Assembly (NCBI GenBank): GCA_018824925.1
Contig: JAHJFH010000026.1
Span: 1 to 30,647, forward strand
From: Thermoplasmatota archaeon
Lineage (GTDB): Archaea > Thermoplasmatota > E2 > DHVEG-1
Length of the DNA stretch: 30,647 nucleotides
Direction of reading: 5' to 3'
The stretch's first letter is position 1, and every line of letters starts with the position of its first letter. Position numbers and translations under genes: made by a program. The notes under the pieces are model-generated. The model was not told where the DNA came from. It ran no database searches and saw only the letters and a program-made list of their open reading frames with translations. Of the stretch, positions 1-2,785 are shown in pieces.

Positions 1-2
1 AT

Positions 3-974
3 ACAATTAATACACTTATAAAAAGACTCCCTTACTCACCAGATTCTCTTTACAACGCCATCGAGGAGATGCTATCTGAAGGTACAATTATAAAAATCAA
101 AACAAGTGGAGAAACACGATTAGACATCCCAAAGAATTATGTGAACCAAAAACGGAAAGAATTTTTTATTAAATCTCTTACTTATGGAATCGATCCAGAA
201 CTCTTTCTCAGAAAAAAAACCCTTTCAGTATGGAACGCTCTCGATACATCCAAAAAAGTAAAGGACCTCACCAAAAAAACCAAATTATCAGAAAAAACAG
301 TGAGAAAATATCTGAAATTCTTCGCAGACTCAGCAGTGCTACAATATGAAAAAAGAAAACCAATAATTGTAAAGAAAATACCATCTCACCCCCTTGTATC
401 GCTCTTGAATTCCATGATAAACGAATCATACACAACCGAACGAGTGTATTCCCCAGGATCATCTCCTTTTGAAGAAATTATTACCACACCTGATGAGATT
501 GAAAAAATTCTCTATGAAAAAATCGATGATAGTGTGACTATCAAAAAAACAGGTTTCCTTGTGAAAGGAAAACCAGATAAAATCTCTGTTCTCGAAAGTG
601 TCACGACCAAACAAATTTCGGAAGACATCTTTCTCAATAAACTAACGACTCCCGAAGGAGTTGAAGATTCATGTATCAAAATCCTCGCAAATAAAAAGAT
701 AGATTTCGAAAAATTGTTCGCCCGCGCAGTCGAAAAAAATATTGTGAATCAAACCGGATGTTATCTAAACATACTCTATGATCTCAATAAACAACTCGTA
801 CCCTATGAAGCAATTACAAAATTTCATGAGCACATTTCGGATAAAAAAAATATTTTTTTAAAAGAAGAAATGAAATATGGAAAATCAGGGTGGGAGAAAA
901 AATATGAAAAGAATTGGAATGTAGACCTCTATCTTGACATTGGAGCTATAGAACATGGAGTTCGGGGAATATGA
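3..974 (+). CDS. 5'-truncated multi-wHTH protein, probable AbiEi-like (type IV TA) antitoxin/transcriptional regulator
   Basis: The frame is open from base 3 (TINTLIKRLPYSPDSLYNAIEEM...), so the gene starts left of the window rather than at ATG 69. It has two HTH-like segments (e.g. KVKDLTKKTKLSEKTVRKYLKFF). The C-terminus (IDFEKLFARAVEKNIVNQTGCYLNIL...KNWNVDLYLD) resembles AbiEi C-terminal domains. Its stop overlaps the next start (ATGA, 971-974). Confidence 0.6.
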   Translation, partial: TINTLIKRLPYSPDSLYNAIEEMLSEGTIIKIKTSGETRLDIPKNYVNQKRKEFFIKSLTYGIDPELFLRKKTLSVWNALDTSKKVKDLTKKTKLSEKTVRKYLKFFADSAVLQYEKRKPIIVKKIPSHPLVSLLNSMINESYTTERVYSPGSSPFEEIITTPDEIEKILYEKIDDSVTIKKTGFLVKGKPDKISVLESVTTKQISEDIFLNKLTTPEGVEDSCIKILANKKIDFEKLFARAVEKNIVNQTGCYLNILYDLNKQLVPYEAITKFHEHISDKKNIFLKEEMKYGKSGWEKKYEKNWNVDLYLDIGAIEHGVRGI

Positions 975-1705
975 ATTATGAAGAATTCCCTGAAATAATA
1001 AAAAAAGACATCGAAGATCAATCATTATCAATTTTACAACATATCGCTGAGGAGATCATAGTAATTGGCGGATGGGCTGTGAGAGCATTAACTGGTGATA
1101 AGCATGCCAGATACACCTTAGATATTGACGGTGTAACCGAACAAAAAACAATGAAAAAAGTTGAATCAATACTAAAACTTCTTGGAATGAATGGACGAAA
1201 AAGTAACTGGGGCATTCAATTCTATCAGCACTATACACCTCAGGTCAAAATTCCTGAAGAAATACGAAAAGAAATAGATAACGTGGAGTTACGAATTGAA
1301 ATCTCAGAACCCAGAATAAAAGAATCACAAACCCACCATTACTTCGAATTCGATTTAACTGAATTCATCATGCGAGACATTCAGTATCATATGAAAAAAG
1401 GGAAAGTAACAATAAAAGTCCCCCCTGCAGAATATATGGCCGCAGTGAAACTTGGTCTGCCTGCCGATTATAAAAATAATTTTGATTCACAAGTATTGCT
1501 TGAAATATGCAATGTGGAGAAAGTTGTTGAGATTATCAAGTTAAATGATGATTGGAGTGAAATGGTACGACGACGAATTCCAAAACTCATTGGCCGCCTT
1601 AATGATAAAGACCGGTTGGAACACATACTTGCGATAAATAATGGCATCAACATTAAGGAACATATCAAAACTATGAAATACATTGAAAACAAACTGAAAA
1701 CATAA
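971..1705 (+). CDS. Nucleotidyltransferase, AbiEii/DUF1814-like (probable type IV TA toxin)
   Basis: Pol-beta superfamily NTase signature IIVIGGWAV...RYTLDIDGV (GG plus DxD). Translationally coupled to the upstream wHTH gene. Confidence 0.7.
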   Translation: MNYEEFPEIIKKDIEDQSLSILQHIAEEIIVIGGWAVRALTGDKHARYTLDIDGVTEQKTMKKVESILKLLGMNGRKSNWGIQFYQHYTPQVKIPEEIRKEIDNVELRIEISEPRIKESQTHHYFEFDLTEFIMRDIQYHMKKGKVTIKVPPAEYMAAVKLGLPADYKNNFDSQVLLEICNVEKVVEIIKLNDDWSEMVRRRIPKLIGRLNDKDRLEHILAINNGINIKEHIKTMKYIENKLKT

Positions 1706-1827
1706 TGATTTTTTTTGTTAAAACAAACGTTGTTTAAGTGCCAGAAGCTCTCTTAAAAAACTTCTGTTCGGTCAGAAGCAATATTTTTCAAGATAGAGGT
1801 CATAAAATTTTTCATCATTATATTAGA

Positions 1828-1858
1828 AGGTGCTGTGTGTAGGCCATAAGCCTCTTTT
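1828..1858. repeat. Direct repeat copy 1: duplicated 3' end of the RNase P RNA gene (att-like site)
   Basis: aggtgctgtgtgtaggccataagcctctttt matches 2466-2496 (aggtgctgggtgtaggccgtaagcctctttt) at 29/31 positions. Confidence 0.9.
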
Positions 1859-1915
1859 CAACATGAGAAAATGGCTAATTTTTATGAAATTTGAAGACAG
1901 AAGTAACAGGCATAT

Positions 1916-1952
1916 CGAAAATTATATATACCACGGTATACCTAAGTATACT
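1916..1952 (+). promoter_or_regulatory. BRE-TATA promoter and probable autoregulatory operator of the antitoxin-toxin operon
   Basis: cgaaa (1916-1920) followed by attatatata (1921-1930), then palindromes ggtatacc (1935-1942) and agtatact (1945-1952) just before ATG 1961. Confidence 0.6.
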
Positions 1953-1960
1953 ATGATAAT

Positions 1961-2200
1961 ATGAGCACAACAACCATTAAAATACAAAGGGATACGAAAT
2001 CTCAAATTGATCAATTTCGAGAATATAAAAATGAAAGCTATGATGATGTGATTAAAAAATTAATTTATATCGCAAAAAACCTTAAAAAAGAACCTGATCT
2101 TAGTAAAGAGACAATTAGAGCCATTGAACAAGCACGTGAACGAATTAAGAAAGGAAAATTTGTCAGCCAGGAAGTTGCTAAACAACGACTGGGGCTCTAA
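1961..2200 (+). CDS. Archaeal RelB-like/RHH-type antitoxin
   Basis: 79 aa. The N-terminal beta-strand plus helices (MSTTTIKIQRDTKSQI...ESYDDVIKKLI) and C-terminal RIKKGKFVSQEVAKQRLGL are typical of archaeal type II antitoxins that precede RelE genes. Confidence 0.75.
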   Translation: MSTTTIKIQRDTKSQIDQFREYKNESYDDVIKKLIYIAKNLKKEPDLSKETIRAIEQARERIKKGKFVSQEVAKQRLGL

Positions 2201-2203
2201 GAA

Positions 2204-2459
2204 ATGTATGACATTATTTTTGATGAAGAAGCAATAGAATTTTTAGAAAAAATTGAGAAGAATATAAAAAAAAAGAATCTACAATAAAATTATTTCAACG
2301 AAACAAGATCCATTTCATTATTTTGAGCGATTAACTGGAAGAAACGAATTTAAACTTTGAGTTGGAGTATATCGAGTTATTGCTGATATTGATGAGACAT
2401 CAAATAGAATATCCATTCTTGTGATAGGTCATAGAAAAAATATTTATCAAAAAATGTAA
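2204..2459 (+). pseudogene. relE: RelE/ParE-family toxin pseudogene (frameshift plus nonsense)
   Basis: Absent from the ORF track. Removing one A from the A9 run (2266-2274) gives MYDIIFDEEAIEFLEKIEKNIKKRIYNKIISTKQDPFHYFERLTGRNEFKL*VGVYRVIADIDETSNRISILVIGHRKNIYQKM. The TGA at 2358-2360 replaces the Arg of the KLRVGxYR motif, and the GHRKNIY motif is intact. Confidence 0.88.
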
Positions 2460-2465
2460 TTTTTT

Positions 2466-2496
2466 AGGTGCTGGGTGTAGGCCGTAAGCCTCTTTT
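2466..2496. repeat. Direct repeat copy 2 (the functional 3' end of rnpB)
   Basis: Matches 1828-1858 at 29/31 and contains the 3' strands of P4 and P1 of RNase P RNA. Confidence 0.9.
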
Positions 2497-2785
2497 TGTT
2501 CTAACAGCATTCATCTAATGCGCCCTACCTTCGAGCAGTCTGAACAACTGATCCCGACATTTGGGCTTGCTCCAGGGCAGATAGGCCGTTTCACCAAATC
2601 CCACAGAGACCTCATCACCAAATATGAATCATCGCATAATCTATGGGCTGTGTCGTTTCTGCGCCTCTGCTAAGACTCTCGCCTTAACCATTTGCATGGT
2701 ATCCTGATTCAGAGTGAGAGAGGACTTTCCTCAGCACCCAACCCACAAGGGATCTGTGCCGTAGCTGTCCACCTACTCCCAGCAC
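2468..2785 (-). ncRNA. rnpB: Archaeal RNase P RNA (type A-like)
   Basis: The minus strand has the conserved blocks GAGGAAAGUCC, AGAAAC, GAAACGG, GAGCAAGCCC and AACAAAAAGAGGCUUAC. P1: GUGCUGGG...GUAGG pairs with CCUAC...CCCAGCAC. P4: AAGUCCUCU pairs with AGAGGCUU. P8-like ACCAU-GCAA-AUGGU and P9-like UAAGGC-GAGA-GUCUUA hairpins are present. Confidence 0.95.

Follow-up and report, generated by a model that had tools for sequence, protein, structure and literature searches.

A probable tandem array of small integrative cassettes at the 3′ end of the RNase P RNA gene in a Thermoplasmatota archaeon

The locus beyond the 3′ end of rnpB

The stretch of DNA considered here, referred to as the window, is 30,647 nt long and opens contig C220 of a metagenome-assembled genome (MAG) from a Thermoplasmatota archaeon. 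The MAG has a size of 1.86 Mb, is distributed over 375 contigs, and is 79.5% complete. The region of interest is the beginning of the window (1-2785), where two small gene pairs, resembling toxin-antitoxin (TA) and defence modules, lie beyond the 3′ end of rnpB, the gene for archaeal RNase P RNA (Table 1). rnpB is a single-copy and essential gene, and the strand that forms conserved region V (CR-V) and the P4 helix is among the most conserved RNA sequences. The window copy is recognised by the Rfam scan with 177.4 bits, the gathering score of the family being 84.

The end of the gene, together with a few nucleotides downstream, constitutes the putative core of an attachment (att) site. It is found again farther out as a direct repeat, with 29 of 31 positions identical. 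The shuffle control gave 0 matches in 100 shuffles, and the two copies are the sole ones in the MAG, in which no third copy of the rnpB 3′ end was detected. Inserted DNA bounded by a direct repeat of the target gene's 3′ end, with rnpB itself left intact, is a feature of integrative elements at structural RNA genes and is seen here as in relatives. The GC content is 0.29-0.36 across positions 1-2500 and 0.38-0.50 across most of the remaining window, with comparable dips also near 19 kb and at 25.5-26.5 kb. Both modules are encoded on the plus strand, opposite to rnpB. The initial annotation, made from the letters alone, had described rnpB, a TA islet, a copy of the rnpB 3′ end, and then a second gene pair in an AT-rich region, with the modules on the same strand; the Rfam scan, the repeat, and the GC profile confirm this order.

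Table 1. Position of the features at the rnpB locus of the window
Feature	Position	Strand	Remarks
rnpB (archaeal RNase P RNA)	2473-2780	minus	full length, P1 helix intact; Rfam RF00373, model positions 1-288
Genic att core	2466-2496	minus	final 24 nt of the gene (3′ strands of P4/CR-V and P1) and 7 nt beyond it
Distal copy of the rnpB 3′ end (att core)	1828-1858	minus	2 mismatches to the genic copy
Cassette 1	1859-2465		607 nt
P arm (element arm) of cassette 1	1859-1905	minus	type-1 variable segment beside the core; conserved 15-nt box at 1889-1903
Ribbon-helix-helix (RHH) antitoxin	1961-2200	plus	79 aa, intact; Pfam DUF7557, 32.5 bits (cut-off 25)
ParE/RelE-family toxin pseudogene	2204-2459	plus	from alignment with intact orthologues
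Cassette 2, part within the window	1-1827
Winged helix-turn-helix (wHTH) partner gene	3-974	plus	about 16 N-terminal residues lost to the contig start; full-length orthologue in G024, 339 aa
Nucleotidyltransferase, MenT/AbiEii-like fold (predicted)	971-1705	plus	start overlaps the stop of the wHTH gene by 4 nt
rnpB-proximal arm of cassette 2	1706-1827		CTTCTG-type boxes and an inverted repeat
535-aa open reading frame	2863-4470	minus	5′ side of rnpB
Aminotransferase-like gene	4419-5687	minus	5′ side of rnpB; 49% paralogue of the aminotransferase beside the G024 array

Cassette 1 lies between the two copies of the rnpB 3′ end. Its predicted layout is that of a type II TA system of the ParDE/RelBE kind, in which a toxin of the ParE/RelE fold is preceded by a small DNA-binding antitoxin. 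The antitoxin frame also gives a weak match to VapB, and a TATA-like element (TTATATATA, 1922-1930) can be read from the sequence ahead of it. In 12 orthologous cassettes, the first, second, and third codon positions of the antitoxin are conserved at 90, 95.5, and 58%, respectively. The toxin gene carries three lesions. The A-run at 2266-2274 has nine A, one more than the eight present in three orthologues; a TGA at 2358-2360 replaces the Arg codon of the KLRVGDYR motif, which is Arg in three orthologues; and the Asp of GDYR is changed to Val. An intact toxin orthologue (locus L090, 3108-3362) matches PF05016 with 38.3 bits (cut-off 23), and the in-frame form with eight A is present on a groundwater metagenome contig (X3). 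In the window cassette, the antitoxin is intact and the toxin is dead. The earlier designation of this module as a RelBE islet needs correction on two points, as the toxin is dead and the antitoxin belongs to DUF7557 and not to Pfam RelB. The toxin stop codon lies 7 nt from the core. Cassettes of this type (type A below) are practically without an arm on the rnpB-proximal side, so that each cassette has one site, at one end.

Cassette 2 contains a wHTH gene followed by a nucleotidyltransferase gene. The wHTH protein shares 61% amino acid identity with its orthologue in a relative (G024) and gives only weak helix-turn-helix matches in Pfam, NCBIfam, and PADLOC (Csa3/CasR-type wHTH region). The nucleotidyltransferase likewise has sub-threshold profile matches only (DUF6036, NTP_transf_5, and Lnu); an AbiEii (DUF1814) match was found neither in Pfam at E<1 nor in PADLOC at E<0.1, and only 52 relatives of the protein occur among 1.84 billion representative proteins. 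An AlphaFold (AF2) model of high predicted local distance difference test score (pLDDT 93.9) was obtained, and its top Foldseek match is MenT3/TglT Rv1045, a mycobacterial toxin of the AbiEii family (E 1e-5, template modelling (TM) score 0.53-0.55). Further matches are MenT4 and MenT1 (E<1e-3), ANT(2'') and LnuA. To judge from the model, the nucleotidyltransferase has a MenT/AbiEii-type fold, with its wHTH partner encoded upstream. As in AbiE and MenAT systems, the wHTH gene comes first with its stop overlapping the nucleotidyltransferase start, and the best structural matches are MenT3, MenT4, and MenT1; these systems differ in that the window pair has no AbiEii or AbiEi profile match in Pfam or PADLOC, the TM score is only about 0.5, and the family is tiny and lineage-restricted. 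The pair had earlier been called AbiE-like. This applies to its fold and to the order of its genes; the sequence family is a different one. The segment between the nucleotidyltransferase stop and the core (1706-1827) is homologous to the corresponding stretch of G024 and of another relative, G081, up to the core and with the same core junction, a 48-nt indel excepted.

The first nucleotide of the window is the start of the contig, and the first 150 nt are neither contained in nor at the end of any other contig of the MAG, so that the locus cannot be followed farther left on this assembly. In a public sequencing run resembling the source, the wHTH gene region occurs as two alleles on separate short contigs (window 46-135 and 303-422). 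One short contig matches the window from position 283 rightward and leftward runs into unrelated sequence of higher GC content. These observations point to strain heterogeneity at this contig end.

The window therefore shows one fully delimited cassette and one that is open on the left. For this reason the window by itself is insufficient to establish an array, and the support is supplied by its relatives.

Arrays, sites, and integrase in related genomes

The comparison covered 108 genomes of the same family, which were searched with an 18-nt core, the reversed pattern serving as control. The hosts are recorded in public databases as uncultured Thermoplasmata or Thermoplasmatales. rnpB was first located in 40 relatives, and the 20 kb downstream of each were searched. 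Extra copies of the rnpB 3′ end were present there in G024, G021, and G020, separated from the gene by low-GC islets of 2.3, 3.6, and 3.1 kb, and several relatives had no downstream copy within this distance. In the family as a whole, the core is found in 90 of 108 genomes and in two or more copies in 62, with up to 12 per genome; the control gave 3 matches in total. The copies form runs on one contig and on the same strand, with a spacing of 0.55-6.5 kb, and such runs start at an intact rnpB in G077, G047, G043, G074, G044, and G010. In the two sister families of the order (10 genomes), exactly one copy was found in each genome, which is rnpB itself. The proposal that the locus accretes small TA modules delimited by copies of the rnpB 3′ end is supported by these tandem copies and by the recurrence of both window cassettes as copy-bounded units. 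The anatomy of the arrays, their recurrence across genomes, and the boundaries of the cassettes can be considered established at this comparative level.

The distance from one copy to the next falls into two clusters, of about 548-638 nt and 802-823 nt, and extends to 6.5 kb in a tail. These clusters correspond to recurrent TA pairs (ParE with RHH, PIN_2 with antitoxin, MNT with HEPN, MazE with DUF4258, and HicB). Four cassette types were distinguished, namely type A (RHH and ParE, to which cassette 1 belongs), type B (a second RHH and ParE pair), type C (a pair of 96 and 117-119 aa, with no family match), and type D (antitoxin and PIN_2). Other recurrent units contain MNT with HEPN, MazE with DUF4258, HicB, NYN, Imm5-like, and MarR proteins; single-gene units encode AAA_14/DUF4143 ATPases, and others encode secreted or membrane proteins, as suggested by their N-terminal sequences.

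Cassette A was found over its full length, from arm to arm, in 11 or more genomes at 70-86% nucleotide identity, and it has copies on both sides in seven of them (G105, G120, G110, G117, G016, G121, and G044). It adjoins rnpB in G105, G016, and G109 and occupies an internal position in G047, G120, and G110. The pairwise identity of cassette A crosses genera, being 86% between g1 and g19, 88% between g15 and g19, and 85% between g18 and g11, while the g19 copy in G109 has only 70-76% identity with other copies from g19. Cassette similarity is therefore incongruent with genus. The wHTH-nucleotidyltransferase pair is not a stable syntenic unit but sporadic, being present in 20 of 108 genomes and in 14 of 40 genera. 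In G024 and G081 it forms a cassette of about 2.3 kb bounded by copies. In eight other genomes it is distant from any core copy, which indicates that the pair also spreads by other routes. Both window cassettes are thus found elsewhere in other array positions when cassette content is compared across related MAGs.

The type C pair, whose reading frames overlap, was observed in six loci (L048 9704-10350; L090 3444-4081; L091 2306-2943; L093 1462-2102; L097 2489-3129; L084 3072-3718). It has no Pfam or PADLOC match and probably represents an undescribed TA family. In G020, the pair sits inside an integrase element.

The larger rnpB-proximal elements (G021, G020, G077, and G010) encode a tyrosine recombinase of 334-341 aa. 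It has the PF00589 domain, a SAM-like N-terminal domain, and a conserved C-terminal extension of about 65 aa, and the Arg, His-x-x-Arg, and Tyr positions are invariant in seven homologues. The best curated match is archaeal XerA (XerA_Arch NF040815, 181 and 157 bits), and the protein differs from XerA in falling below the equivalog cut-off of 220 and in its extra extension. Among the homologues with at least 49% identity, 12 of 14 adjoin the 3′ end of the rnpB gene itself and are convergent with it. Ten of these are within about 320 nt, and those of G020 and G010 lie farther off, at distances of 0.9 and 1.7 kb that include one module. In metagenome contigs carrying the integrase, 14 of 26 have it likewise beside the genic rnpB end; in six further contigs the far side of the core is an element arm or another non-rnpB flank, which reflects either an internal position or possibly a free form. 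The position of the integrase thus stands on the same footing as the array anatomy. The cargo that adjoins it varies between genomes, which argues that the integrase rides distinct mobile elements and is not a fixed platform. Integrated elements carry intact integrase frames beside the core. Truncated or stop-containing copies occur in G074, G055, G099, and G078 and are read as decay in place. It had been supposed that a recombinase outside the window mobilises the modules. A cognate tyrosine recombinase does adjoin rnpB in relatives and was not found in this MAG; the only recombinase of the MAG in question, on contig C306, is 26% identical and is taken to be the host's own Xer-type enzyme. 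Further repeats and a recombinase, which would have been expected to the left of the contig start, are thus supplied by the copies and the rnpB-linked integrase of relatives, and with the sporadic occurrence of the wHTH-nucleotidyltransferase pair neither of the two refuting outcomes considered earlier is borne out.

Two metagenome loci with other element genes were noted. Locus L192 (contig Ga0272441_10024102, 7.8 kb) contains the integrase, a single core flanked by sequence other than rnpB or the typical arms, and ten more open reading frames without Pfam match; it is a candidate for a larger element, or a free one, of this integrase clade. Locus L185 holds a neighbouring element with RusA and Schlafen/AlbA_2 genes.

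The alignment of 60 non-genic copies from 24 loci revealed a composite site of about 80 nt at the rnpB-distal end of the cassettes, which consists of a box, an AT-rich spacer, a variable segment, and the core. The 15-nt box is YTTCTGTCTTCAAAA or ATTACGTCTTCAAAA and is at a fixed distance from the core in 38 of the 60 sites. The variable segment beside the core has 18-20 nt and occurs in three discrete types. The core comprises 27-31 nt, is identical to the rnpB 3′ end, and reads GRGGCTTAYGGCCTACACCCARCA. Upstream of it, in the sense of rnpB, the sequence is not that of rnpB but a conserved element arm; the distal copy of the window has a type-1 arm with its box. Often, and particularly in integrase elements, the next element opens with the same box immediately after the core, and the box-spacer-core layout is common to elements with the integrase and cassettes without it. 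The only hairpin that RNAalifold predicted for 38 aligned sites, with both strands considered, has 5 bp and lies within the core (-4.8 and -2.3 kcal/mol). Since no longer conserved hairpin is predicted, the site resembles a double-stranded att site with arms and does not resemble a folded attC.

Repeats without cargo were also observed. In L101 (G055:C26, 1151-1242), two cores are 74 nt apart with only box, spacer, and variable segment between them, so that the unit is "empty". In a class-level relative (L043, G036:C100), the rnpB 3′ end is duplicated in immediate tandem over 46 nt with no cargo between. In addition, contigs of several MAGs end 0-100 nt from the rnpB 3′ end (G022:C42, G025:C22, G011:C22, G005:C51, G028:C45, and G026:C33). 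Such breaks fit the presence of strain-variable DNA that disrupts assembly, and the arrays offer an explanation for their frequency in this group.

Proposed mechanism and rival explanations

The region 1-2785 is likely to represent one end, the rnpB-proximal one, of a row of small integrative cassettes inserted in tandem at the rnpB 3′ end, for which the following mechanism is proposed. Larger sibling elements of 3-6.5 kb encode a Xer-like tyrosine integrase, which would recombine the core of a circular element with the rnpB core. Integration would regenerate an intact rnpB and older cassettes would be pushed outward. The TA cassettes without integrase would keep the same site and would probably be moved in trans while an integrase is present. 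Each cassette is a self-contained operon, apparently with its own promoter. The chemistry of recombination, an insertion point at the genic core, and mobilisation in trans are inferred. Since no cognate integrase was found in this genome, the toxin has decayed, and the distal core has two mismatches, the array seen here is most likely a static remnant; the window instance is a small, short array end that is probably inactive.

A broader reading can be advanced only tentatively, with somewhat less than even confidence. According to it, the arrays form a genuine gene-capture platform, convergent with integrons, in which an integrase derived from XerA uses the rnpB 3′ end as a docking site in this one family to capture, stack, and exchange self-expressed TA and defence cassettes between genera, each with a single double-stranded site of about 80 nt that imitates the rnpB end, the cassettes without integrase being the main currency and orphan arrays corresponding to the clusters of attC sites lacking integron-integrases (CALINs).

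Several observations weigh against the array mechanism. The left boundary of cassette 2 lies outside the window. A cognate integrase was found neither in the window nor in the MAG, at its given completeness, nor was the element integrase found in G047 and G017, which are rich in arrays. The high-quality MAG G017 contains an orphan array of 5-6 copies (L095, G017:C11:27000-38500) on a contig other than that of rnpB; its rnpB (G017:C6:32274-32566) has no copies within 20 kb, and the array contig contains no rnpB fragment at a permissive Rfam threshold. No RNA family was matched in the array loci at such a threshold either. Variable segment and cargo are reassorted with respect to each other, cassette A having type 1 in the window and type 2 in G047, and a simple crossover confined to the core would not lead one to expect this. 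In the P arm of cassette 1, conservation hardly exceeds that of third codon positions (65 versus 58%). Excision joints were absent from the assembled contigs of four public runs including the source-like one, a result that is uninformative for rare events; the core has 0 matches in IMG/VR viral contigs; and no circular contigs were found, 0 of 26 integrase-bearing metagenome contigs having terminal overlaps. A clean same-species pair of empty and occupied sites was not found either. In genus g25, G069 and G024 share rnpB at 94% and not the flank, and the gene pair of G069 is on another contig.

Pure decay and recombination by host functions have to be kept as live rivals because of the segment reassortment, the G017 orphan array, and the arrays without detectable integrase. 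If decay alone were at work, the islets would be stumps of full-size integrase elements in which deletion spared addictive TA modules, and units without integrase would never move. This would agree with the almost invariable presence of integrases in the rnpB-proximal, and hence youngest, element, with the existence of integrase fragments and pseudogenes, with the decaying toxin of the window itself, and with the TA pair of G020, a free-standing cassette elsewhere that lies inside the integrase element with no core between. However, random deletion should not yield one and the same kind of cassette with the same two boundaries in many genera, nor sharply clustered cassette sizes, nor a box at fixed distance in so many sites, and the similarity of cassettes across genera is also unexpected. 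Decay alone is accordingly rated unlikely. Still less probable, although conceivable, is an origin without a dedicated integrase, either by homologous recombination between sites of about 50-90 nt after DNA uptake or by the host XerA being hijacked, as integrative mobile elements exploiting Xer (IMEX) hijack XerCD at dif. The arrays in genomes where the cognate integrase was not found, the XerA-like character of the element integrase (181 bits with NF040815, versus 220), the reassorting segment, and the orphan array away from rnpB in G017 would all be accommodated in this way. Against it stand a specific integrase clade tightly linked to the site, mostly 85-320 nt from the genic core, and arms that hold repeated boxes typical of recombinase binding sites.

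An artefact, whether the repeat arose by chance, through chimeric assembly, or by local duplication without mobile-element origin, is suggested by the start of the window at a contig end and by the allelic variants of the source sample in 46-422. It is nevertheless highly improbable, being at odds with the shuffle control and with an independent assembly of the source-like run, in which a 10-kb contig covers 1533-4500 with 2 differences, and it is contradicted by the comparative data, since the same architecture is present in dozens of independent MAGs and metagenome contigs.

Relation to known systems

Tandem integrative elements and islands at the 3′ ends of tRNA and tmRNA genes are well known and include tyrosine-integrase islands and archaeal elements of the pNOB8 type. 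The rnpB arrays share with them an att core that is the 3′ end of a structural RNA gene, presumably regenerated on insertion, direct repeats, in relatives an integrase close to the att site, and tandem arrays attributable to serial insertion. They differ in the target, which is the 3′ strand of CR-V/P4 and P1 of rnpB; in consisting mostly of operons of 0.6-0.8 kb without integrase instead of multi-kb islands; and in units that keep a conserved composite site of about 80 nt. A literature search retrieved no report of rnpB as an archaeal attachment site and no published description of such arrays. Candidate bacterial papers on rnpB as an att site turned out to be irrelevant, as rnpB serves there only as a phylogenetic marker. 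The recurrent use of rnpB as a docking site adds a target class beyond tRNA and tmRNA genes.

The arrays also resemble integrons and CALINs, including archaeal integrons, in being one-directional arrays of small swappable cassettes with one site at one end. With sedentary chromosomal integrons they have in common a content rich in TA and defence genes. Further likenesses are a tyrosine recombinase, located in relatives at the presumed insertion end beside the genic core, and the many arrays without recombinase. However, the integrase of the rnpB arrays is not IntI, giving 78 bits with TIGR02249 (cut-off 265) and 28 with PRK15417 (cut-off 435). The sites lack a conserved attC-like hairpin, the insertion point lies within an essential RNA gene, the integrase is carried by variable mobile elements with no fixed platform, and the cassettes appear to have their own promoters, as inferred from sequence. 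The earlier suggestion of an integron-like or tandem-island system is thus sustained in its second part, since the arrays work like tandem islands; IntI and attC features are missing, and the integron remains an analogy. Neither RNase P nor XerA nor Thermoplasmata is mentioned in the study of archaeal integrons by Ghaly et al. 2022 (PMC9668308). If the integrase-less cassettes indeed move in trans, they would constitute a second, independently evolved integron-like capture system, derived from a Xer paralogue.

By analogy, the CTX and TLC arrays of IMEX at dif are comparable in their use of a Xer-family recombinase, in tandem arrangement at one chromosomal site, and in passengers without integrase; the present elements would differ in encoding their own Xer-like paralogue and in targeting rnpB instead of dif. 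In integrases of the Sulfolobus spindle-shaped virus (SSV) type, attP is inside the integrase gene, which is split on integration, whereas the integrase gene of the rnpB elements stays intact. The arrays are probably a main route of accessory-gene flux in these archaea, since more than half of the searched family genomes carry arrays with TA or defence cargo, and the cassette sites provide a simple marker for mining mobile TA and defence genes.

On the 5′ side of rnpB, the window continues with the 535-aa frame and the aminotransferase-like gene of Table 1. An aminotransferase lies on the rnpB 3′ side in G024, and an inversion of G024 relative to the window was considered. It was rejected, as the orthologue of the G024 gene is on contig C167 of the MAG (74%) and the gene of the window is its 49% paralogue.

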